A DNA stretch of 64,000 nt from the NCBI GenBank assembly GCA_048595045.1, contig JBMDXS010000214.1, forward strand, positions 9,831-73,830, in the 5' to 3' direction. Positions 353 to 55,239 of this stretch are shown here, one piece after another. The notes under the pieces are model-generated. The model worked only from the letters and a program-made list of their open reading frames with translations. It searched no databases and had not been told where the DNA came from. The stretch's first letter is position 1; the number at the start of each line of letters is the position of its first letter. Made by a program: the position numbers and the translations under genes. The stretch is from Acidimicrobiia bacterium. Lineage in GTDB: Bacteria; Actinomycetota; Acidimicrobiia; Spongiisociales; ZC4RG35.

Positions 353-387
353 CTCGGGGGTCTGGGGGTCGCCCCCCCAGATTCGAC
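353..387 (+). repeat. Palindromic intergenic repeat, copy 1 (CTCGGGGGTCTGGGGGTCGCCCCCCCAGATTCGAC)
   Basis: Lies between gatB and pyk. The stem TCTGGGGG / CCCCCAGA flanks a short TCGC(C) loop. Near-identical copies occur at 43716-43747 and 49365-49396. Confidence 0.8.
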
Positions 388-2171: not shown

Positions 2172-4145
2172 TCAGGAGGTTGGTGAGGTCGTCCCGGGGG
2201 GAGCCGTGGTCGGTGGGGTCGTCCCCGGGGGGGCCGTGGTGGGCAACGTGGTGGGCGGCACCGTCGTTGGCGGGATGGTCGTAGTGGTGGGACAAGCGGT
2301 CGATGTGCCGGGCACCATGCACGGATGTACCTCGAAGACAGCGAACCTGGGGGCGTAGCGAACGGTCCATTCCTGGAGGTCGACCACATTGTTCTCGTCG
2401 CCTCCGAGCAGGATCCGCCGGGTCACCGTCACGCTCCAGCCGCCAAGCTCGGTCTGGGTCTGATTTTGCTGGTTGACACCGAACTCGGGGTTCGGCTCGT
2501 AGCGAGGCTCAGGTGGGTCGGTGAGGGCGAAACGGTCCGAGACGTCACCTTTGACGTGGAGTGCGTTGGGACCCCCTTCGGCGTCGACCCACGCCCGGCT
2601 CCGCCCGTCCGATTGCTCGCCCTTCAACGTGCGACCGTCGTTCTCGCCGAAGATACGGACGGTGATCGAGGTGTCGGTGTAGGTGGTATCGATCAAGATC
2701 CCGTATTCGGTGTTGTTGCGGAACTTGAGATCGGGGCTGCGCCAGTTCAGCGTGGCCTCGACCCCCTCCGGATATCGCGGGAAGTAGTAGGAGTGGGGCT
2801 TGTGCTCGACGTCCTCATAACCACCCCAGAACACCGCGTTGTAGAGCGTGGTGGTGAACTGGCTGACTCCACCGCCGACGGTGTCTTCGACCTCTCCGGC
2901 GATGATGGTCCCCGCGGGCAGATACCCGTCCTCCACCGTGCGCGGGCCGACGTGGTCGTTGAGACTGAAGGTCTGGCCTGCCGGGACGATGGCGCCGTCC
3001 ACCTCATCGGCGATGCGGTGGATGTTGACCACCCGGTCCTGGCAGCAGTCGTAATAGGTGGTGAATTGCGCGACAAGATGGTTGATGTTGAGGGCCTCCA
3101 GGTCCTCGGTGGTCACCTCGGGGGCGGCGGCTTCGACGAAGGGCAAAACGCCCTCGCGACCGCCGGTCAACGCTGCGTTTGCCATGCGCGACGCCGTCTC
3201 CGCCTCGTCGATCCGCGTGCCGCTGCTGCCGGGGACTATCGAGATGCTGTCGCCCTCGATTTCGAAGAAGGCATCTACCGGCTCGGCCTCCACCTGATCC
3301 CGGATGGCGTTCAGATAGCCATCGACGACCGCCGGGTCGAATGAATTGACGATGCGAGGCCGGCTCTCGGTGATCGTCTCCGACCGAAAGGCCTCGAGTA
3401 GCTGATCGACCGTGAAGACGACCTCGAAATCCTCGCTCACCAGGCGAATCGGCTCGGCCAACATCGCCTCGGCCTGGTCGACGGCCGCGTCTACGTCCTC
3501 ATTGGTCAGCACGGGCACGATCGTCGTGGTGGGGATGGATGTGGAGTCCGGCGCAAGGGCGAGGAGAGTCGCCTCGACCACGGCACGGGCCGCGGCGCGG
3601 TCGACCCCGGTCCCAACCATGGGGTAGTCCGGGGTGGGGACACCGTCGACGAGGCTGACGCCGCCCGGGCTGGAAGGCAGGGCGATCACTTCGGAATCCC
3701 AGGTATCGAAGACGGCTTCGATGGCGACGTCATCGACCGCCCCTCGAACCGGGACCCGCACGGTGTCGAAGATGTGGCTGATCCACCATGCGAACTCGGA
3801 GAAAGGATTGCCGTCGCGCCCCACCAGCAGGGCCTCGTCGGCTATCGCCTGTTCGTCGATCTCCAGCCCGGCCTCCGAGGGCTGGATACTGGCGAACTTG
3901 CCGTCGACGTTGAAGACGGCCGGACGCGCCAGATAGGCATCCTCCACGGCGAGGAGGGCGCTCAGAGCCTGTTCCAGGTCCAGTCCGCCGATCTGGGTGC
4001 CGGCCACCTCGACGCGTCCCATCACCTCACCTCGTGAGGCGAGCCGGGTCAAGCCGTACGCAGACAAGATGAGCAGGACGATCCCGGCAACACCCGTCAC
4101 GAGCGCGCCAAGCGGGGTCCTGATCCAGGAGAGATATCTATTCAT
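2172..4145 (-). CDS. VanW-domain protein with N-terminal membrane anchor and C-terminal Pro/Thr-rich tail
   Basis: 657 aa. There is a TM helix near the N-terminus. The VanW-like core reads GQTFSLNDHVGPRT..GY..AG..GGGVSQFTTTLYNA.F..G....H.PHS.Y. The tail is TTTTIPPTTVPPTTLPTTAPPGTTPPTTAPPGTT. Confidence 0.85.
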   Translation of the reverse strand: MNRYLSWIRTPLGALVTGVAGIVLLILSAYGLTRLASRGEVMGRVEVAGTQIGGLDLEQALSALLAVEDAYLARPAVFNVDGKFASIQPSEAGLEIDEQAIADEALLVGRDGNPFSEFAWWISHIFDTVRVPVRGAVDDVAIEAVFDTWDSEVIALPSSPGGVSLVDGVPTPDYPMVGTGVDRAAARAVVEATLLALAPDSTSIPTTTIVPVLTNEDVDAAVDQAEAMLAEPIRLVSEDFEVVFTVDQLLEAFRSETITESRPRIVNSFDPAVVDGYLNAIRDQVEAEPVDAFFEIEGDSISIVPGSSGTRIDEAETASRMANAALTGGREGVLPFVEAAAPEVTTEDLEALNINHLVAQFTTYYDCCQDRVVNIHRIADEVDGAIVPAGQTFSLNDHVGPRTVEDGYLPAGTIIAGEVEDTVGGGVSQFTTTLYNAVFWGGYEDVEHKPHSYYFPRYPEGVEATLNWRSPDLKFRNNTEYGILIDTTYTDTSITVRIFGENDGRTLKGEQSDGRSRAWVDAEGGPNALHVKGDVSDRFALTDPPEPRYEPNPEFGVNQQNQTQTELGGWSVTVTRRILLGGDENNVVDLQEWTVRYAPRFAVFEVHPCMVPGTSTACPTTTTIPPTTVPPTTLPTTAPPGTTPPTTAPPGTTSPTS

Positions 4146-27573: not shown

Positions 27574-27942
27574 TCAGCCTTCCAGCTTGTCCTTGGCCTT
27601 CTCTACCACGCCCTCGGCAGCGTCCTTGGCCTCGGCTGCCTTCTCCTGAACGGCGTCCAGGGCACCGGATGCGGAATCCTTCGCCGAGTCGACGACGTCG
27701 CCCGCCTTCTCCTTGGCCGAGTCGACGACGTCGCCCGACTTCTCCTTGGCGCCGGCCATCGCATCGGAGGCTGCGTCCTTGGCCGAGCCCATGACGTCGG
27801 ACGCTTTCTCCTGGGCGCTGCCCATCGCATCCCGGGCCGAGTCGACCGCGTCCTCTGCGAAGTCCCCGGCCTTCTCGACCACCTCTGCCCCCTGGTCCTT
27901 CGCACCGCCAAACCATCCCTTGATGGTGTCCATCAGTCCCAT
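27574..27942 (-). CDS. small hydrophilic protein built from ~10 consecutive 11-residue repeats (LEA group-3-like)
   Basis: 122 aa. From GAKDQGAEVVE to VVEKAKDKLEG the sequence parses into 11-mers such as KSGDVVDSAKE and KAGDVVDSAKD. There are no Cys/Trp/aromatics except in the N-terminal WF. Confidence 0.6.
   Translation of the reverse strand: MGLMDTIKGWFGGAKDQGAEVVEKAGDFAEDAVDSARDAMGSAQEKASDVMGSAKDAASDAMAGAKEKSGDVVDSAKEKAGDVVDSAKDSASGALDAVQEKAAEAKDAAEGVVEKAKDKLEG
27683..27748 (-). repeat. near-perfect 33-bp tandem duplication inside the 11-mer repeat gene
   Basis: 27683-27715 and 27716-27748 (gccgagtcgacgacgtcgcccgMcttctccttg) differ at one base. They encode KEKSGDVVDSA / KEKAGDVVDSA. Confidence 0.9.
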
Positions 27943-40324: not shown

Positions 40325-41971
40325 ATGTCACGTCACGTCAGGACTCGATCGGCAATCATCGGCTTGCTCGCCGTTTGCCTCTTCCTGGTCGGCTTGCCCG
40401 CCACCGCCACGGTCTCGGGTCAAAACGGCAAGATCGCCTTCGTCAGCGATCGGGACGGCAATCCCGAGATCTACGTCATGGAGGCCGATGGCTCGAATCA
40501 GGTCAACCTGACCAATCATCCCAGCTCCGACCGAAGCCCGACCTGGTCTCCCGACGGCCGCCAGATTGCATTTGTATCCGACCGAGACGGCGAACGCGCC
40601 ATATACGTCATGGACAACGACGGCTCGAATCTCAGGTTCCTGGTCAGAGGCGAGTATCCAGCCTGGTCACCCGACGGCAGGATGATCGCCTTCGCCAGAA
40701 GCATCGCACCCAACAAGAATGCGTTGTTCTTGTTGCAACTCGATGATGATCACCAGACACAGATCACCGATCCCCTCAGGGATCCTCTGCCCACGGGTCT
40801 GATAGGCAGATTCGACAGATCGCCGATCTGGTCTCCAGACGGGACGCAAATCGCCTTCTTGCGTAGTCACGTCACCGCTGGTTCGCCCATGACTCACTAT
40901 GACTATCTGTACGTCACCGCGGCGACGCCAGCAGGCGACCCGGTGCGCCTCCCCACGAGCACCACTGTCAGACGCTACGCCGACCCCGACTGGTCGCCCG
41001 ACGGTGCCAAGATCGTCGTAGGTGAGATCGGGCATCTCAATCTCACGTTTCAAACCGTGGCTGTCAACGTCGACGGTTCAGGATTCGCCCCCCTCCCTGC
41101 CCTTGCCGGATCACACCCTGATGTCTCGTGGTCGCCGGACGGCTTGAGATTGACGTCCGGCTCGGACGAGATCTTTGTGATGCGGGTCGATGGCTCCAAC
41201 GCGGACAATCTGACCAACAATCCTGCTGCTGACTATCAGCCGGTCTGGCAACCGCTGAACCCCTATCCGGCAGGTCTGGTCGACCCTGCTACCGGTATGT
41301 GGCATCTCCGGTACGAGAACGGGCACGTCGACAGCTTCTTCTTCGGTGATCCCGGCGACTTTCCGTTCCTCGGCGATTGGGACTGCGACGGGATCGAGAC
41401 CCCTGGTCTGTATCGCCAGTCCGACGGTTTCGTCTACTTGAGGAACTCCAACACCCAGGGCATCGCCGACATCCGGTTCTTCTTCGGCAACCCGGGCGAC
41501 ATCCCGATCGCCGGTGACTTCGACGGCGACGGGTGCGACACCGTCTCCATCTATCGACCGGCCGAGGGGCGGATCTACGTCGTCAACCAGTTGGGTAGCG
41601 GAGACAGCGGACTCGGAGCGGCCGATTACAGCTACCTGTTCGGGGACCTGGGCGACAAGCCGTTCGTCGGCGACTTCGACGGAGACGGCACCGACACCGT
41701 CGGGCTCCATCGCGAGTCCACCGGCATGGTGTATTACCGGGACAGCAACACCCAGGGCGTCGCCGACAACACCTTCGTCTTCGGCGACCCGGCCGACCGC
41801 CTGGTGGCATACGACTGGAACGGTGACGGGAGAGAATCTCCGGCGGTGTTCCGCCCCGAGAACCACACCGTCTACTTCCGCTTCGAGAACAGCACCGGTG
41901 TCGCCGACGCCCGCTACATCTGGGGAGCCCCCGGCTGGTTGCCGGTGGCCGGTGATTTCGGCCCGGACTGA
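40325..41971 (+). CDS. secreted protein: TolB-like PD40/WD40 beta-propeller repeats + five FG-GAP-like Ca-binding repeats
   Basis: It has a signal peptide MSRHVRTRSAIIGLLAVCLFLVGLPATA with GAGGAGG upstream. PD40 repeats read SDRDGN.EIYVM..DGSN...LT....D..P.WSPDG. The C-terminal repeats read F.FG..GD.P..GD.DGDG.DT...YR. Confidence 0.75.
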   Translation: MSRHVRTRSAIIGLLAVCLFLVGLPATATVSGQNGKIAFVSDRDGNPEIYVMEADGSNQVNLTNHPSSDRSPTWSPDGRQIAFVSDRDGERAIYVMDNDGSNLRFLVRGEYPAWSPDGRMIAFARSIAPNKNALFLLQLDDDHQTQITDPLRDPLPTGLIGRFDRSPIWSPDGTQIAFLRSHVTAGSPMTHYDYLYVTAATPAGDPVRLPTSTTVRRYADPDWSPDGAKIVVGEIGHLNLTFQTVAVNVDGSGFAPLPALAGSHPDVSWSPDGLRLTSGSDEIFVMRVDGSNADNLTNNPAADYQPVWQPLNPYPAGLVDPATGMWHLRYENGHVDSFFFGDPGDFPFLGDWDCDGIETPGLYRQSDGFVYLRNSNTQGIADIRFFFGNPGDIPIAGDFDGDGCDTVSIYRPAEGRIYVVNQLGSGDSGLGAADYSYLFGDLGDKPFVGDFDGDGTDTVGLHRESTGMVYYRDSNTQGVADNTFVFGDPADRLVAYDWNGDGRESPAVFRPENHTVYFRFENSTGVADARYIWGAPGWLPVAGDFGPD

Positions 41972-42040: not shown

Positions 42041-43714
42041 ATGGAGGAGATGGTCGGCCGAGTGCTTGGGACCAGCGATGCCACCCCACTCGAGTTCTGG
42101 GTGGGTGTGGCCGATGGCGAGTACCTGGAACTGGATGATGTGGTGGCCCTGGAGAGGGTGCTGCCCACCGGCGAGCTGGTCAAGATCTTCGGCACCATCA
42201 GCCAGGTCCGCGCCCGTCACGAAGGGGCGCGGTTCGATTCCGATGTCTTCCTCATCGAGGAGGGTGTGCTTCCCGCCGCGGTCCAGGAGGCGGCCCAGGT
42301 CACCGCGACCCGGGTCGAGCCCGAGATCTTCGTCCCCCCCCGCCCCGGCCAGCCGGTGCGCCGGGCCCATGACAAAGAGCGCGACCAGGCCCTGTTCTTC
42401 GATCGGATGGATCGGAGGTTCCCCGTCGGGGCCTCACGTAATGGCGAGCCTCTCTATGCCAACCTGGAGTTCATCAACGGGCAGCGTGGGGCGCATGTGA
42501 ACATCTCCGGGGTATCGGGCGTTGCCACCAAGACCAGCTATGCCACCTTCCTTCTCCACTCGATGTTCACCTCCGGCGTGCTCGGACCGGCCGTCGTCAA
42601 CACCAAGGCACTGATCTTCAACGTCAAAGGCGAGGACCTTCTCCATCTCGATCGACCCAACACCAGCCTCGATGATGACGCCGAGCGTCTCTACCGGGCT
42701 CTCGAGCTACCGGCCCAGCCATTCGGTTCTGTCGGGTTGTTCGCCCCTCCCCGCCCCGGATCGGACCGGGCCGTGGCCGACGTGAGCAGCCGCTCGGACC
42801 TCACCTCCTTCTTCTGGACACTGGCCGAGTTCTGCCACGAGGACCTCATGGTCTTCCTGTTCGCCGACGCCGAGGACGAACGAGCGCAGTACACCATGGT
42901 GGTCTACAACGTGATGGCCCAGCTGCGCCACGCAGAGGGTGGGGACGGAGGCTCGGTCCGCATCGAAGGGGAGGCCGTTCGCACCTTCAGGGAGCTGGCC
43001 GACCTGATCACGAGAAAGGTGCAGGACGAGGACTCGCGCAACGAATGGGCCGGGCCCCATATCGGTGCCGGGACCGTGAATGCCTTCGTGCGTCGTCTCC
43101 AGGTAGCGGTGCGTCACGTCGATCGTCTGATCCGGGGTGACATCGCCAACCCGGAACGGCATCGCATCGAGGTCCAGGGCCATCAGGTGACCGTCGTGGA
43201 CCTGCACAACCTCAATGATCGGGCGAAGAGATTCGTGGTCGGTGTGGCAGTGAGACGTGCGTTCGAAGACAAGGAGCGGGCCGGCCAGTCAGAGGAGTTG
43301 CTCTTCCTGGTCCTTGACGAACTGAACAAGTACGCCCCGAGAGAAGGGACGAGCCCAATCAAGGAGGTGTTGCTCGATGTGGCCGAACGTGGCCGATCCC
43401 TGGGTGTGATCCTGATCGGTGCCCAGCAGACTGCTTCCGAGGTGGAGCGGAGAATCATCGCCAACTCGTCGATCAGGGTGGTCGGGCGTCTCGACTCTGC
43501 CGAGGCCTCGCGTGAGGAGTATGGATTTCTCCCCGCGGCCCAGAGACAGCGGGCCACCATTCTCAAGCCGGGCACCATGCTCCTGGCCCAACCCGAGATC
43601 CCGGTGCCGCTCGTGCTCGAGTTCCCGTTTCCCGCCTGGGCAACCCGTGCCTCGGAGGCGGCGCCGGCGCCGATCGGAGATGATGGTCCGACCGACCCGT
43701 TCCAAGATCTGTAG
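42041..43714 (+). CDS. herA: HerA-like FtsK/HerA-superfamily ATPase (HAS-barrel N-terminus)
   Basis: 557 aa. The N-terminal VGRVLGTSDATPLEFWVGV....LELDDVV resembles the HerA HAS barrel. The P-loop region is HVNISGVSGVATKTSY, Walker B is LLFLVLDELNKY and the Arg-finger-like region is RSLGVILIGAQQ. Confidence 0.7.
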   Translation: MEEMVGRVLGTSDATPLEFWVGVADGEYLELDDVVALERVLPTGELVKIFGTISQVRARHEGARFDSDVFLIEEGVLPAAVQEAAQVTATRVEPEIFVPPRPGQPVRRAHDKERDQALFFDRMDRRFPVGASRNGEPLYANLEFINGQRGAHVNISGVSGVATKTSYATFLLHSMFTSGVLGPAVVNTKALIFNVKGEDLLHLDRPNTSLDDDAERLYRALELPAQPFGSVGLFAPPRPGSDRAVADVSSRSDLTSFFWTLAEFCHEDLMVFLFADAEDERAQYTMVVYNVMAQLRHAEGGDGGSVRIEGEAVRTFRELADLITRKVQDEDSRNEWAGPHIGAGTVNAFVRRLQVAVRHVDRLIRGDIANPERHRIEVQGHQVTVVDLHNLNDRAKRFVVGVAVRRAFEDKERAGQSEELLFLVLDELNKYAPREGTSPIKEVLLDVAERGRSLGVILIGAQQTASEVERRIIANSSIRVVGRLDSAEASREEYGFLPAAQRQRATILKPGTMLLAQPEIPVPLVLEFPFPAWATRASEAAPAPIGDDGPTDPFQDL

Positions 43715-43715
43715 C

Positions 43716-43747
43716 GCCCGGGGGTAGGGGTCGCCCCCCAGGTTCGA
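43716..43747 (+). repeat. Palindromic intergenic repeat, copy 2 (diverged, 1-2 nt shorter)
   Basis: CCCGGGGGTAGGGGTCGCCCCCCAGGTTCGAC lies between the herA-like gene and sbcD. Confidence 0.75.
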
Positions 43748-43827
43748 CCGCGGGCGCGAGATCGCATCTCCCCGAATCTGTCGGTGCTCGGTCCTACGAT
43801 CGCCCTCATGACCCGCTCGGTCCCTCC

Positions 43828-49364: not shown

Positions 49365-49396
49365 CTCGGGGGTCTGGGGGTCGCCCCCCAGATGTA
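49365..49396 (+). repeat. Palindromic intergenic repeat, copy 3
   Basis: CTCGGGGGTCTGGGGGTCGCCCCCCAGATGTA lies between two minus-strand genes and is near-identical to copy 1. Confidence 0.8.
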
Positions 49397-49402
49397 TCGC
49401 GA

Positions 49403-50041
49403 TCAAGAACGCCGATACCGGCTCAGATACTCCGGGACATCGAGATCGGGTTCCAGGTCAGGGGCGGGTATCGGCTCCCCATAAGAGGTCGCGATCGGGA
49501 CCACACCGGCCCACACCCCGGTGCCGAGATCGGCTGGGTCGTCCTCAGGTGGGCCTGATGAGACCTTTGCCGACACCAGGCCGATCGGTACGGCCACCAC
49601 GGCCGTCTTCCGAATCTCGAGGTCGGTGGGCTCCCTGATGTCGGCGAGACGGCCAGGGATCAGGCCCTCCACCATGAGGTCGAGGGCGCGCCGGTGATCG
49701 GCGCCTTCCAACACCGTTCCCTCGCCATGGAGGACCACGGAGCGATAGTTGACCGATGACTCGAAGGCACTCCTGGCCACGACCAGCCCGTCGACGAGAG
49801 TCACTGCGACACTGAGCGGAGAGCCACGACGTGCTGCCGACGTGATGCCCGAGGACGTCGACCCATGGAGGAGGATCGTCTCGTCGTCACGCACGTAGAG
49901 AGTCGGGATCACGACCGGCCGATCGTCTGTGAGGTAGGCGACGTGGCAGACGTATCCCTCGTCCAGGATGGAGTAGATCACCCGCCGCTCACCGACCGCC
50001 TTCTCGGGGAGACGGCGGATCCGTGTCGGGGGGCGCGCCAT
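49403..50041 (-). CDS. pyridoxamine 5'-phosphate oxidase-family (FMN-binding split barrel) protein
   Basis: 212 aa. The pattern SILDEGYVCHVAY...PVVIPTLYVRDDETILLHGS is typical of this family. Confidence 0.8.
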   Translation of the reverse strand: MARPPTRIRRLPEKAVGERRVIYSILDEGYVCHVAYLTDDRPVVIPTLYVRDDETILLHGSTSSGITSAARRGSPLSVAVTLVDGLVVARSAFESSVNYRSVVLHGEGTVLEGADHRRALDLMVEGLIPGRLADIREPTDLEIRKTAVVAVPIGLVSAKVSSGPPEDDPADLGTGVWAGVVPIATSYGEPIPAPDLEPDLDVPEYLSRYRRS

Positions 50042-51089: not shown

Positions 51090-52205
51090 GTGGCTCTCTC
51101 CATCGGTATCGTCGGTCTGCCCAACGTCGGCAAGTCCACCCTCTTCAACGCGCTCACCGACGCGGGTGTCCTTGCCGCCAACTATCCGTTCGCCACCATC
51201 GAGCCCAACACGGGGGTCGTCCCCATTCCCGACGGCCGCCTCGAGGTGCTGGCCGGTATCTTCGGGTCCAAGCGAGTGGTGCCGGCGACGGTGACGTTCG
51301 TGGACATCGCCGGCTTGGTGAAGGGCGCAGGGGAGGGGGAGGGGCTGGGCAACCAGTTCCTCGCCAACATCCGCGAGGCCAACGCCATCTGTCATGTGGT
51401 CCGGGGGTTCAGATCTGAGCGCGTGGCTCACGTCGCCGGCGCGGGGGTCTGGGGCTCGTCCCCCGGGAATGACGGCCTCGATCCCCGTCGTGACATCGAG
51501 ATCATCGAGACGGAATTGGCGATCGCCGACCTCCAGACCATCGACAAGCGCCTTCCACGACTCGAAAAGGAGTCGACGATCGACAGGTCCCTGCTTGCTC
51601 AGGTCGACCTCATACGTGAGCTGCGAGCCATCGTCGCCTCGGGCCGGATGGTCAGCAGCGTGCCAGGACTGATGGATGCTGCCGGTGGTCTCTCCGATCT
51701 GCAGTTGCTCACCGCCAAGCCGATCATCTACGTCTTCAATCTCGACGAGGAAGGCCTTCGTGATGTTCCCCTCCGTCAGCAACTGGCGGGGCTGGTCGCG
51801 CCGGCCGAGGCGCTGTTCCTCGATGCTCAGATCGAGGCGGAGATGGGCGAACTCGACGAAGACGACCGCAGAGAGCTTCTCGCGTCGGTCGGGCAGGAGG
51901 AACCTGGTCTCCATGCGGTGATCCGGGCCGCCTATCGCACGCTCGGTCTGCAGAGCTTCCTGACCGCCGGCGAGAAGGAGGCGCGGGCGTGGACCATTCG
52001 CTCGGGCACAACCGCCCCCGAGGCCGCAGGCGTGATCCACACCGACTTTCAGCGCGGGTTCATCGCTGCCGAAGTCGTCGGCTACGAGGCCCTGGTCGAG
52101 GCGGGCTCGTGGCTGACCGCCCGAGCCCGCGGGTTGATCCGCACCGAGGGAAAGACGTACGTGATGCGCGCAGGCGACGTCGTGGAGTTCAGGTTCAACG
52201 TGTGA
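51090..52205 (+). CDS. ychF: redox-regulated ribosome-binding ATPase YchF (with 11-aa insertion)
   Basis: It has GIVGLPNVGKSTLFNALT, VDIAGLVKGA, GLGNQFLANIRE and a TGS-like C-terminus. There is an extra AGVWGSSPGND between HVAG and GLDPRRDIE. Confidence 0.95.
   Translation: MALSIGIVGLPNVGKSTLFNALTDAGVLAANYPFATIEPNTGVVPIPDGRLEVLAGIFGSKRVVPATVTFVDIAGLVKGAGEGEGLGNQFLANIREANAICHVVRGFRSERVAHVAGAGVWGSSPGNDGLDPRRDIEIIETELAIADLQTIDKRLPRLEKESTIDRSLLAQVDLIRELRAIVASGRMVSSVPGLMDAAGGLSDLQLLTAKPIIYVFNLDEEGLRDVPLRQQLAGLVAPAEALFLDAQIEAEMGELDEDDRRELLASVGQEEPGLHAVIRAAYRTLGLQSFLTAGEKEARAWTIRSGTTAPEAAGVIHTDFQRGFIAAEVVGYEALVEAGSWLTARARGLIRTEGKTYVMRAGDVVEFRFNV
51441..51473 (+). repeat. diverged in-frame copy of the palindromic repeat inside ychF
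   Basis: GCGGGGGTCTGGGGCTCGTCCCCCGGGAATGAC compares with the intergenic consensus CTCGGGGGTCTGGGGGTCGCCCCCCAGATTCGAC. It is exactly 33 nt, in frame, and coincides with the 11 residues that are extra relative to YchF orthologues as I recall them. Confidence 0.6.
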
Positions 52206-52273
52206 ATCGCGCCCAACGGCAAGGTGGGACGCAACATTGTCCGGCAACTAAGGTTTGCCCTGCCGTTGACGCC

Positions 52274-52349
52274 GAATGGGAGAGCCCCTGGAACGGAGGG
52301 GCGCCGAAGGGGCAACTCCTCCCCGGAATCTCTCAGGCACTTGGACCGT
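52274..52349 (+). promoter_or_regulatory. glycine riboswitch aptamer (single) upstream of gcvP
   Basis: AAUGGGAGAG...CGCCGAAGGGGCAA...UCUCUCAGGCA..GGACCG matches the conserved glycine aptamer core. It lies 65 nt upstream of the gcvP ATG. Confidence 0.8.
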
Positions 52350-52413
52350 TCGGTCGAGGCAGCGCTGGAGGATGACGACAGCGGGGGAGGGCATTCGCAC
52401 CCTGAGGAGAGAG

Positions 52414-55239
52414 ATGCCCAACCCAAACGAGCGCTTCGTCGACCGACACATCGGCCCCGGCCCCGACGACATCGAGAAGATGCTCGCCACCGTCGGCTCC
52501 GCCTCGCTGGATGACCTGGTAGCCGAGACCATCCCTTCCTCGATCGTCGACACCGATCTGGATCTCCCACCGGCCCTTTCCGAAGCCGAGACGATCGCCC
52601 GGCTTCGAGAGCTGGCCTCGAAGAACGTCGTCATGACATCTCTCATCGGTCTTGGCTATCACGACACCATCACCCCAGCCGTGATCCAGCGCAATGTGCT
52701 GGAGAGCCCGGCCTGGTACACCGCCTACACCCCGTATCAGCCCGAGATCTCCCAGGGGAGGCTCGAGGCCCTCCTCAACTTCCAGACCATGGTCTCCGAC
52801 CTCACCGGGCTCGATGTCGCAAATGCCTCGCTGCTCGACGAGGCGACCGCGGCCGCAGAGGCGATGGCCATGTGCCGACGGCTGGCCAAGGGAGACCGGT
52901 CCGTGTTCTACGTCGACGACGACTGCCATCTCCCCACCGTGGAGGTGGTCAGGACCAGGGCGGAGGCGATCGGCATCGAGGTCCGCCCGATCTCGGACGG
53001 GTTCGAAGCAGATTCGGCCTTCGGGCTTCTCCTCCAGTACCCGGGCTCGTCCGGAGAGATCGCCGACCACCGGTCGCTGGTCGAAGACGCCAAGGCGGCT
53101 GGCGTGATGGTGGCCGTGGCCGCCGACCTCCTCGCCCTCACGTTGCTGAGCCCGCCCGGTGAGTGGGGTGCCGACATCGTGGTGGGATCGGCGCAAAGGT
53201 TCGGGGTGCCGCTCGGCTATGGCGGCCCGCATCCGGGATTCATCGCCACCCGAGATTCGCACGTGCGCGCCCTTCCCGGCCGCCTCGTCGGCGTCTCGCA
53301 CGACACTTCGGGGCGTGTCGCCTATCGGCTCGCCCTACAGACGCGTGAGCAGCACATACGAAGGGAGAGGGCGACCTCCAACGTCTGTACCGCTCAAGTG
53401 CTGCTGGCGGTCATCGCCGGCTTCTACGCCTGCTGGCACGGCCAGGAAGGACTGATCGAGATCGCCAGAGAGACCCATCGCCTGGCTACGACAGCGGCGG
53501 CTTCGTTGCAAGCAGCCGGCATCGAGGTTGTCAACGGCTCCTGGTTCGACACCATCACCGTGTCGACACCGGGACGGGCGGCGGAGGTGATCGAGGCCGC
53601 AGTCGAACTGGGTATGAACCTCGGCCCTGTCGACCGGGACCACGTGCGGGTCGCATTCGACGAGACCACCAACGACGAAGTCGTGGCCCGGGCCCTCCGA
53701 GCCTTCGGTGTGGAGAGCACGGAGGACGGCACCTCTGGTGCCCTCCCTGGCGGCCTGGAGCGGCGGTCCGAGTTCATGACGCATCCGGTGTTCCGACTCC
53801 ATCGCTCCGAGCACGCCATGCTCCGCTATCTGCGACGCCTGGCCGACCGCGACCTGGCCCTGGACCGGAGCATGATCCCACTGGGCTCCTGCACCATGAA
53901 GCTGAACGCCACCACCGAGATGATCCCGATCACCTGGCCGGAGTTCTCGGCGATCCATCCCTACGCCCCGGCCGATCAAGCCGCCGGCTATCACGAGCTC
54001 ATCGACGAGCTGGCCGACGCCCTCTGCCGGATCACCGGTTATGACTCGGTATCGCTCCAACCGAACGCCGGGTCGCAGGGCGAGCTGGCTGGTCTGCTCG
54101 CCATCCGCGCCTACCACGAGTCCTTGGGGCACGGGCACCGCGACGTCTGCCTCATCCCCTCCTCCGCCCACGGCACCAACGCTGCATCTGCGGTGATGGC
54201 CGGCATGCGGGTAGTGGTCGTGGCCACCGACGACTCGGGCAATGTCGACCTGGCCGATCTGGAGTCCAAGGCCGTCGAGCACTCGGACCGACTGGCCGCG
54301 GCCATGATCACCTACCCATCCACCCATGGCGTATTCGAGGAAGATGTCCGAAGGCTCATCGACACCGTCCACCGTCACGGGGGTCAGGTGTACGTCGACG
54401 GCGCCAACCTCAATGCCATGGTGGGTCTGGCCAAGCCCGGGGGGTTCGGGGCCGACGTCGGGCATCTCAACCTGCACAAGACCTTCACCATCCCCCACGG
54501 CGGGGGCGGCCCGGGGGTCGGGCCGGTCGGCGCACGTGCCCACTTGGCCCCCTACCTGCCCAACCACCCACTCGACGATGCGGCCGGCCCCGAAACGGGG
54601 CTCGGGCCGATCGCCGGCGCACCATACGGCTCTGCCGGAATCCTCCCCATCCCCTATGCCTATATCCGGCTCATGGGTGGCGACGGGCTGCGAGCCGCCA
54701 GCAAGGTGGCGATCCTCTCGGCCAATTACCTGGCTCGCCGGCTCGACCCTTACTTTCCCGTCCTCTACGCGGGGAGCAAAGGCCGTGTCGCTCACGAGTG
54801 CATCATCGATCTTCGGCCGACGACGAAGGCGACCGGCATCACCGCCGACGACGTGGCGAAGCGTCTCGCCGACTACGGGTTCCATGCCCCGACACTCTCA
54901 TTCCCGGTCGCCGGGACGCTCATGATCGAGCCGACCGAGTCGGAGAGCCTCGAGGAGCTCGAGCGGTTCGTCGAAGCAATGATCGGCATCCACGACGAGG
55001 TGTCCCGTGTCGAATCGGGAGAGTGGCCGTCCGACGACAACCCGCTCCGCAACGCTCCGCACAGCGCCGAGCTGGTGGCGGGCGATGACTGGTCACACCC
55101 CTATTCGCGAGAGGCGGCTGCCTTCCCGGTGGGCTCGCTGCGGTCTGACAAGTACTGGCCGCCGGTGAGCCGCATCGATGGCCCCGGCGGTGACCGCAAC
55201 CTGGTTTGCGCCTGCCCACCTCTGGACGCCTACGCTTGA
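52414..55239 (+). CDS. gcvP: glycine dehydrogenase (aminomethyl-transferring), single-chain P protein
   Basis: About 941 aa. It starts [15 protein letters not shown], with GAGGAGAGAG upstream. The region around HLNLHKTF is the PLP-lysine region. Confidence 0.95.

Follow-up and report, generated by a model that had tools for sequence, protein, structure and literature searches.

In a 64-kb stretch of contig JBMDXS010000214.1 from an Acidimicrobiia bacterium (the whole stretch of 64,000 nt that was analysed is called the window), the gene ychF, encoding the redox-regulated, ribosome-binding ATPase YchF, carries 33 nt within its reading frame that nearly all of its close homologues lack. We conclude that this segment (positions 51441-51473, plus strand) is very probably a copy of a short GC-rich hairpin repeat, similar to the repetitive extragenic palindromic (REP) sequences, which was inserted into the coding sequence. 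The segment belongs to the same repeat family that occupies intergenic spacers elsewhere in the window.

The gene ychF (51090..52205, plus strand) was identified from its open reading frame and from structure matches, and encodes an intact protein of 371 amino acids. The protein is a member of the YchF/OLA1 subfamily of Obg-like P-loop ATPases, having the full-length three-domain architecture of a G domain, an inserted coiled-coil and a C-terminal TGS-like domain. Its translation contains the G1 motif GxxxxGKS as GLPNVGKS and the specificity motif NxxE as NLDE, and the homologues carry PF01926 and PF06071. In phmmer alignments to the YchF structures 1jal (H. influenzae), 2dby (T. thermophilus) and 8kie (E. 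coli), residues 2-371 were covered with E-values of 1e-99 to 1e-102. Each of these alignments had one gap, of exactly 11 residues, at HVAG/AGVWGSSPGND/GLDP. The inserted peptide, AGVWGSSPGND, corresponds to residues 118-128, and its 33-mer, GCGGGGGTCTGGGGCTCGTCCCCCGGGAATGAC, occurs only once in the window.

We compared YchF with the best 120 cluster representatives from a collection of 5.8 billion proteins. Most of these (114/120) are 360-361 amino acids long. The insert is present in only four, P0001-P0004 (370-371 amino acids, 87-94% identity), and is lacking in the remaining 116, so that the extra 33 nt noticed in the preliminary description were confirmed. Two other representatives, P0009 and P0105, are longer due to N-terminal extensions and do not have the 11 residues. 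All the 15 full-length sequences of 370-371 amino acids, which come from four 90% clusters, retain the insert in frame. A metagenome scan for near relatives of this ychF gave only alleles of ≤77% identity, none of them with the insert; they served as outgroups. From the gaps against the structures and the lengths of the representatives, we concluded that the insertion is genuine and, relative to the age of the family, recent, and that it is limited to a single group of Acidimicrobiia (group names of the relatives were taken from the records of the metagenome-assembled genomes, MAGs). The insert was found in near relatives only, and not as unrelated DNA at the same place in unrelated YchF lineages.

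The same loop has also changed in another manner. In the insert-free relative L206, whose protein is P0009, four other extra residues, GFDA (GGTTTCGATGCC), follow the HVD codons. The HVD loop of ychF is an indel hotspot. We considered GFDA as a footprint of excision of the repeat and rejected it, since it bears no convincing similarity to the repeat.

At the DNA level, 13 consecutive bases, CGGGGGTCTGGGG, are exactly identical at positions 355, 49367 and 51442, the first two being intergenic copies of the repeat and the third lying in the ychF insert. The insert also matches the repeat in the TCG, CCCCC and terminal GAC blocks and equals the repeat unit in length. All of this agrees with what had been described at the outset. 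The 23-mer core with up to two mismatches occurs three times in the window, whereas simulating the window 200 times with a first-order Markov model gave an expectation of 0.0 (maximum 0). For the 13-mer with one mismatch, 0.73 occurrences are expected. The similarity is therefore far better than that expected for GC-rich sequence. One detail of the preliminary description needed correction. The peptide SGVWGSPPRFD, given there as the translation of the repeat, turned out to be a hybrid of two intergenic copies, named A and B below: copy A has seven C and reads SGVWGSPPQIR in its own frame, and copy B gives SGVWGSPPRCI. Over GVWGS-SP, the inserted peptide nevertheless still matches.

The relatives provide the decisive evidence. 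We compared the insert-bearing ychF DNA of five of them, L001, L002, L004, L005 and L019, and observed that their inserts match the repeat consensus at the DNA level over 31-33 nt, with the non-palindromic tail included. They are, if anything, nearer to the consensus than the insert of the window. The L004 insert, CCGGGGGTCTGGGGGTCGTCCCCCAGAAGTGAC, has no mismatch to the family consensus, shares 25 of 26 bases with intergenic copy B and forms a perfect 8-bp palindrome (TCTGGGGG/CCCCCAGA). Its non-palindromic tail, AGAAGTGAC, is common to intergenic copies in the Acidimicrobiia MAGs L016, L040 and L046. The L019 insert reads TCGGGGGTCTGGGGGTCGTCCCCCGGAAGTGTC. In the window, the original TCTGGGGG/CCCCCAGA stem has decayed, leaving a residual hairpin at 51442..51465 (plus strand) in which CGGGGG (51442-51447) pairs with CCCCCG (51460-51465), with an RNAfold energy of −15.6 kcal/mol. 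Hairpin folding is retained by all the ychF copies, with energies of −13 to −20 kcal/mol; in L001, G>A and C>T changes are paired in such a way that a stem persists. Because of the count of three against 0.0, and because the inserts of the relatives match the consensus including the tail, a chance or merely compositional similarity is excluded.

Four copies of the repeat were counted within the window, three of them intergenic. Copy A (355..387, plus strand; CGGGGGTCTGGGGGTCGCCCCCCCAGATTCGAC) starts 6 nt after the stop codon (346-348) of a gatB-like gene and ends before pyk (start 407). Copy B (49367..49398, plus strand; CGGGGGTCTGGGGGTCGCCCCCCAGATGTATC) lies between two minus-strand genes, a few nucleotides past the stop of a PNPOx-like gene (49403..50041) and upstream of an EamA gene (start 49327). 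These two are near-perfect. Copy C (43719..43748, plus strand; CGGGGGTAGGGGTCGCCCCCCAGGTTCGAC), which had escaped the earlier reading of the window, is degraded; it is placed 4 nt after the TAG stop (43712-43714) of the open reading frame 42041..43714 and upstream of sbcD (43828). All three intergenic copies follow a stop codon at a distance of 3-10 nt, and both orientations occur. Their hairpins have folding energies of −18 to −20 kcal/mol, with −20.1 kcal/mol for copy A.

L002, L003 and L019 have copy B as well, in the orthologous spacer. In the P0010 contig, whose gene table has an insert-free ychF, the spacer between the EamA and PNPOx genes is 51 nt, compared with 75-76 nt. This shortening by about 25 nt suggests that copy B, too, is absent from that contig, in which case the intergenic copies may be no older than the copy in ychF. 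Orthologues of copy C are present in L002 (2791-2816) and L003 (2790-2815). They differ at several positions and in the lengths of the G and C runs, even between L002 and L003, which encode identical YchF. These differences reflect either a very fast evolution of hairpin repeats by slippage or unreliable assembly at hairpins.

Next, we considered how the protein accommodates the insert. Outside the insert, the ratio of non-synonymous to synonymous divergence (dN/dS) between pairs of insert-bearing alleles is 0.08-0.14, indicating normal purifying selection on YchF. Within the insert, dN rises to 2-7 times the value found elsewhere in the gene, and the ratio (omega) is ∼0.5-0.6. The peptide varies freely, with the variants AGVWGSSPGND, PGVWDSSSGNH, SGVGGSSPGSV, SRVRGSSP-VV and PGVWGSSPRSD, and the sole change of length is one in-frame deletion of 3 nt. 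An AlphaFold2 model built with 119 sequences (predicted template-modelling score, pTM, 0.79) matched the ribosome-bound E. coli YchF, 8kie_y, in Foldseek with a TM score of 0.85. In this model, residues 111-128 are coil with a predicted local distance difference test (pLDDT) score of <50, lying after the last strand of the G domain in this part (99-105) and before the long helix with which the coiled-coil opens (132-164). The insert is best read as a tolerated surface loop that is predicted to be disordered, and the placement proposed earlier, in a tolerated loop at the hinge between the G domain and the helical domain, is consistent with this low-confidence coil. As read from the sequence, five of the six reading frames of the repeat unit are free of stop codons, and therefore in-frame survival would be easy. 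The predicted tryptic peptide across the loop is VAHVAGAGVWGSSPGNDGLDPR.

We then followed the history of the insert among ychF alleles. A codon-based neighbour-joining tree was calculated after removal of the insert columns, with 500 bootstrap replicates. The alleles of the window, L001, L002, L005 and L019 group together in a single clade (100% bootstrap). The insert-bearing L004, however, is sister to the insert-free L205 (93.6% nucleotide identity, 100% bootstrap), and the insert-bearing alleles were monophyletic in none of the 500 replicates; a tree of 42 protein sequences gave the same picture. Among the members of the 90% cluster of P0003, three have 371 amino acids and one has 360. P0249 (371 amino acids) and P0250 (360 amino acids) are identical except that the former has D-N-[PGVWGSSPRSD]-S where the latter has D-E-A. 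L004 and the insert-free L208 differ at only 2 of 348 nt upstream of the insert site and at none of 78 nt downstream. The insert is therefore polymorphic among near-identical alleles, which argues for its recent gain, loss or exchange. That insert-bearing and insert-free alleles coexist among very close relatives also supports the earlier proposal that the repeat is, or was, mobile. In addition, the inserts of L019 and L004 have no synonymous difference at 8.8 sites, when the gene-wide proportion of synonymous differences (pS) is 0.47 (rough probability 0.004). This fits independent insertions of consensus copies or ongoing homogenisation, and not a single old neutral insert.

On the basis of these data, we propose the following course of events. 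The repeat normally resides between genes, just past a stop codon by a few bases, and can face either way. The copy in ychF would have been tolerated because its length is divisible by three, the frame that it hit is stop-free and its site is a variable surface loop (HV-xxx-LDP) where the G domain meets the coiled-coil. It would be translated as an 11-residue disordered loop rich in Gly, Ser and Pro, and would since have evolved mostly as a weakly constrained coding loop within a protein that is otherwise under strong purifying selection. We infer a mechanism of present or past movement of the element in which no target-site duplication is left behind; single-strand hairpin transposition of the HUH type, as by REP-associated tyrosine transposases (RAYTs), and templated capture or gene conversion from another copy are the candidate mechanisms. 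Either ychF would have been hit more than once, or recombination would have passed the insert between alleles. The flanks are most simply read as a clean 33-nt insertion into an HVD-NS-LDP allele, without target duplication, followed by recombination across backgrounds. Two site-specific gains, one gain plus allelic exchange, or precise excision would all imply a discrete, movable unit.

Several observations weigh against repeated insertion by a mobile element. The closest filled and empty alleles differ in the two flanking codons, AAC...AGC in the filled and GAA GCG in the empty one; hence, a simple insertion into the sampled empty allele does not explain this pair. The insert has the same nucleotide position, orientation and TCGT loop variant in both insert-bearing clades, which fits a single origin as well. 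The ychF alleles of one Acidimicrobiia population are mosaic, with a 220-nt block that is 16% divergent, and N-terminal (N1/N2) and middle (M1/M2) variants are found in all four combinations (L004, L205, L208; P0003, P0249, P0250, P0013, P0005). This implies either that rather divergent alleles have recombined homologously or that the metagenome assemblies are chimeric. As ychF alleles recombine, the patchy distribution of the insert does not by itself prove repeated transposition. All the relatives are metagenome assemblies, in which strain chimeras are possible. We found no clear target-site duplication in the filled/empty comparisons of L004 with L208 and L205 or of L021 with L207, and no conserved target motif beyond the C at position −1. 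Duplication models of 2, 3, 4, 6 and 9 nt were tried on L004, the window, L019 and the site in an ABC-F ATPase gene described below, and none fits the net lengths of 33 nt or 150 nt without extra indels; similarities of the left flank to the tail of the element (GTGGAC/GTGAC and GAAGGT) were not interpretable. A search with an HUH...Y regular expression, which is a crude and weak test, revealed no RAYT-like or transposase gene near the repeats in 119 loci of up to 8 kb and the window; one hit, in L129, was at an unrelated locus.

Much of this would be explained if the element entered ychF once, long ago, and is now immobile, its patchiness being produced by allelic recombination or occasional deletion and its consensus being kept by ectopic gene conversion or by constraint on the hairpin. 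The shared position, orientation, frame and loop variant, the mosaic structure of the gene and the flanking codons, which differ as in long-separated haplotypes, are what such a history would leave behind. We nevertheless consider it unlikely, albeit the most serious of the alternatives. The tree would require the insert to have been lost or exchanged independently several times, the L004 copy remains pristine, its synonymous sites being unchanged relative to L019, and no donor lineage with AAC...AGC flanks exists among the sampled alleles. It is more doubtful still that the insert was co-opted, either as a loop (for instance for binding the ribosome or a partner at the hinge) or as an RNA or DNA hairpin (for instance as mRNA structure) kept by selection. 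The retention of the frame in 15 of 15 full-length sequences, with a length change only of one codon, the persistent folding of all copies, the compensating changes in L001 and the low synonymous divergence inside the insert would be in accordance with it. But the peptide varies freely with its high dN and omega, alleles with and without the insert coexist for a protein that is otherwise the same, disorder is predicted for the loop, and any GC-rich run folds well.

Two further explanations can be given hardly any weight. An ordinary lineage-specific expansion of the loop, resembling the repeat only in being G/C-rich, deserves thought as high-GC genomes abound in runs of G and C and the 13-mer with a mismatch is by itself not rare. 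The excess of the 23-mer, the match of the orthologous inserts over their entire length and tail, and the agreement of length with the repeat unit make such a coincidence scarcely credible. The probability that the 33 nt arose by mis-assembly or sequencing error at a hairpin is even smaller. Hairpins and homopolymer runs are error-prone, and copy C does differ between L002 and L003; however, the insert is in frame in independent assemblies from NCBI, ENA and JGI (L001-L005, L019), and its divergence tracks the gene tree. Insertion of a discrete, movable repeat into ychF remains our preferred reading.

We screened the 142 genome copies of the repeat listed by the scan described below for long open reading frames supported by GC content at third codon positions (GC3), which yielded several candidates, and compared two of them with insert-free orthologues. 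The ABC-F ATPase P0121 of Actinomadura sp. 6N118 (L021, NZ_JBIRAZ010000028.1, ∼2577-2598, minus strand) has 593 amino acids (NCBI), compared with 542 in its orthologues. Relative to three 542-residue orthologues at 81-83% identity, it has 50 additional residues immediately following Walker A in its second ABC domain, made of two tandem 75-nt units, each giving RGSGG(R/S)PPE across the core. The comparison of filled and empty DNA at this site (L021 versus L207) showed no duplication. The second case is the 554-residue FAD-binding oxidoreductase P0255 (AGPS-like) of Actinomadura syzygii (L024, NZ_VSFF01000002.1, ∼1729-1750), having a clean in-frame insert of 26 amino acids, ...AAKRGSWHPAPRGSGGRPPASY, that corresponds to one 78-nt repeat unit. 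It is missing from an 89%-identical orthologue and from every other aligned orthologue. Since both the ABC-F ATPase and the FAD oxidoreductase carry the repeat, in-frame colonisation of coding sequences is a recurrent trait of this family. It is a minority fate, accounting for roughly 3% of the copies sampled. Separately, a plus-strand copy at 3642 of L095 lies in the open reading frame of a regulator of 1073 amino acids of the SARP/TPR type, and its opposite-strand reading is …GGRPPDPRRVVGRSSLRSGPSD…; this regulator appears to contain two or three repeat units and is a candidate third case.

To describe the family as a whole, we scanned one genome per species with the 21-base pattern GGGGGTCTGGGGGTCGNCCCCC and found at least 142 copies at at least 119 loci, where chance alone would give ∼5 in all high-GC genomes by our own estimate from base composition. 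The matches listed come from Actinomadura (many), Spirillospora, Actinocorallia, Thermomonospora, Microbispora, Herbidospora, Kutzneria, Lentzea, Actinokineospora, Amycolatopsis, Streptomyces, Kribbella, Nocardiopsis and several Acidimicrobiia MAGs. The repeat consensus is CGGGGGTCTGGGGGTCG[C/T]CCCCCAGA with an (A/G)-rich tail ending in GAC. Its conserved core is C-GGGGG-TCTGGGGG-TCG(C/T)-CCCCCAGA, followed by the purine-rich tail, of which the GAC end belongs to the present lineage; the unit measures ∼31-38 nt. Positions that were left free in the search pattern are also conserved among the matches listed: 89% have a C at −1, and the bases A, G and A occupy +22 to +24 in 84, 94 and 68%. These bases complete the TCTGGGGG/CCCCCAGA stem, and the next seven are unusually rich in purines and in A. 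The flanks outside the 26-nt core (CGGGGGTCTGGGGGTCGYCCCCCAGA) are lineage-specific. In Actinomadura, for example, the core is at the tip of 75-81-nt units beginning with GCAGCGAAGCGAGGATC. A near-exact 26-nt core shared by two classes of Actinomycetota inside lineage-specific units is an unusual feature. It points either to horizontal spread or to a conserved host or element protein that recognises the core.

Most of the 142 listed genome copies are outside open reading frames, and ∼3% of the sampled copies are genic. Copies on the same strand at 30-60 nt after the ends of open reading frames were in crude excess, 21 versus 3 among 141 copies with rough calling of reading frames. In several genomes, the core forms tandem arrays with periods of 35, 38, 78, 81 or 168 nt. 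Such arrays were located in L073 (4436-4660; 38 nt), L122 (2606-3185; 168 and also 46 nt), L010 (5806-5862; 35 nt) and L050 (3069-3252; 81 nt). These arrays, from one Acidimicrobiia MAG and other Actinomycetota, look like minisatellites or clusters of the bacterial interspersed mosaic element (BIME) kind. Rfam 15, at both gathering and permissive thresholds, gave no match on the copies of the window or on the arrays of L073, L122, L050 and L060. The best permissive hit, Guanidine-II, scored 21 bits against a threshold of 32 and is due to chance, and the glycine riboswitch was the only Rfam family in the window. The core was absent from the viral contigs scanned; therefore, there is no sign of a phage origin. 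[quoted passage not shown] It is apparently undescribed. The intergenic copies probably act, if at all, as 3′-end hairpins.

Putting these results together, we tentatively suggest that CGGGGGTCTGGGGGTCGYCCCCCAGA might represent an undescribed family of Actinomycetota hairpins that is still active or maintained in a sequence-specific manner. It would insert without target duplication, possibly with site preference or precise excision, and would repeatedly add short disordered loops to housekeeping proteins such as YchF, ABC-F and FAD oxidoreductases. If so, it would be a GC-rich counterpart of the Rickettsia palindromic elements (RPEs) that extends over two bacterial classes and not one genus.

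Other repeated and structured segments were also noticed in the window. Inside the region of a PD40/Tricorn-like gene, there are 208-nt direct repeats of 70% identity with a spacing of 297 (41331-41835) and 72-nt direct repeats with a spacing of 132 (40428-40631), both of which are probably due to repeated protein domains. At 27611-27841, a 66-nt direct repeat with a 33-nt sub-period is present in four copies and is probably a coding repeat on one strand. A glycine riboswitch aptamer (RF00504, 68.6 bits; 52267-52358, plus strand) is directly upstream of gcvP, encoding glycine dehydrogenase, in an ordinary arrangement; the open reading frame of gcvP is listed as 52276..55239, and its true start is probably further downstream.

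To our knowledge, in-frame selfish palindromes in essential genes have largely been treated as a peculiarity of Rickettsia, with scattered cases of MITEs elsewhere. Here, the same outcome arises from a much smaller, GC-rich hairpin in free-living Actinomycetota. The otherwise identical filled and empty alleles of a universal ATPase constitute a natural experiment on the gain of protein loops and offer a handle on the movement of short hairpin repeats in high-GC bacteria. There is also a practical side. The Prokaryotic Genome Annotation Pipeline (PGAP) calls both the 593-residue ABC-F protein and the 554-residue oxidoreductase straight through the repeat, so the repeats are translated in annotated proteins, and such repeats can confuse alignments, trees and strain typing.

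Finally, we compared the repeat with known systems. Mycobacterial interspersed repetitive units (MIRUs) are tandem minisatellites of 46-101 bp without this hairpin core. They resemble the present repeat in being actinobacterial, in having lengths that are multiples of three and in occupying operon spacers, and the GCAGCGAAGCGAGGA module in the composite units of Actinomadura seems to resemble the MIRU sequence. With the hairpin-only, I-shaped terminators of actinobacteria and with repeats resembling terminators, such as SPRITE, the repeat shares strong GC hairpins at 3-10 nt after stop codons. It differs from them in that conservation covers the sequence as well as the structure, copies are found in either orientation and one of them lies in coding sequence. 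The hairpins are followed by AGATTCGAC, AGATGTATC or AGGTTCGAC, with no run of T, and lacking a U-tract they are not canonical intrinsic terminators.

MITEs and similar repeats (ERIC, BOX, QMITE1 and the Anabaena MITEs) are likewise small, non-autonomous and able to form stable stem-loops, with occasional in-frame fusions; in-frame intragenic copies are listed for all four in PMC10969869. However, MITEs have terminal inverted repeats and target-site duplications and are usually >100 bp and AT-rich. Neither of the two hallmarks was seen here and the unit is a single hairpin; therefore, the repeat is not a classic MITE. With its 33 nt, it also departs from these families in size, GC content, host phylum and sequence. 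REPs and REPINs, the paired form of REPs, come nearer, being imperfect palindromes of 20-40 nt that are multi-copy, mostly intergenic near the 3′-ends of genes, single or in tandem, and without target-site duplication. The GTAG/CGTC head of REPs is absent, as the logo of 141 copies has only the C at −1 with positions −2 to −5 variable. Moreover, REPs are usually restricted to a species or genus and are by definition extragenic, whereas the core of the present repeat is conserved throughout the phylum. In structure, REPs are the closest known kind.

In behaviour, the closest parallel is with the RPEs, whose in-frame occurrence in Rickettsia genes was reported by Ogata et al. (2000), as summarised in PMC10969869. 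Like them, the repeat is palindromic and non-autonomous, is present both in intergenic regions and in frame in conserved genes, adds its peptide at a tolerated surface position and has hit several unrelated genes (here ychF, the ABC-F ATPase and the FAD oxidoreductase). The parallel with Rickettsia, drawn already in the preliminary description, therefore stands as an analogy of behaviour. It does not extend to family membership, the two being unrelated in sequence as judged from size and composition: RPEs are ∼100-150 bp (30-50 amino acids), AT-rich and restricted to Rickettsia, whereas the Actinomycetota unit is 31-38 nt (11 amino acids in ychF, or a composite of 75-78 nt in Actinomadura) and extremely GC-rich. 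We thus class the phenomenon as RPE-like. A selfish palindrome that becomes a protein loop through translation is a known kind of phenomenon, and its carrier here is an apparently undescribed, phylum-wide GC-rich hairpin.

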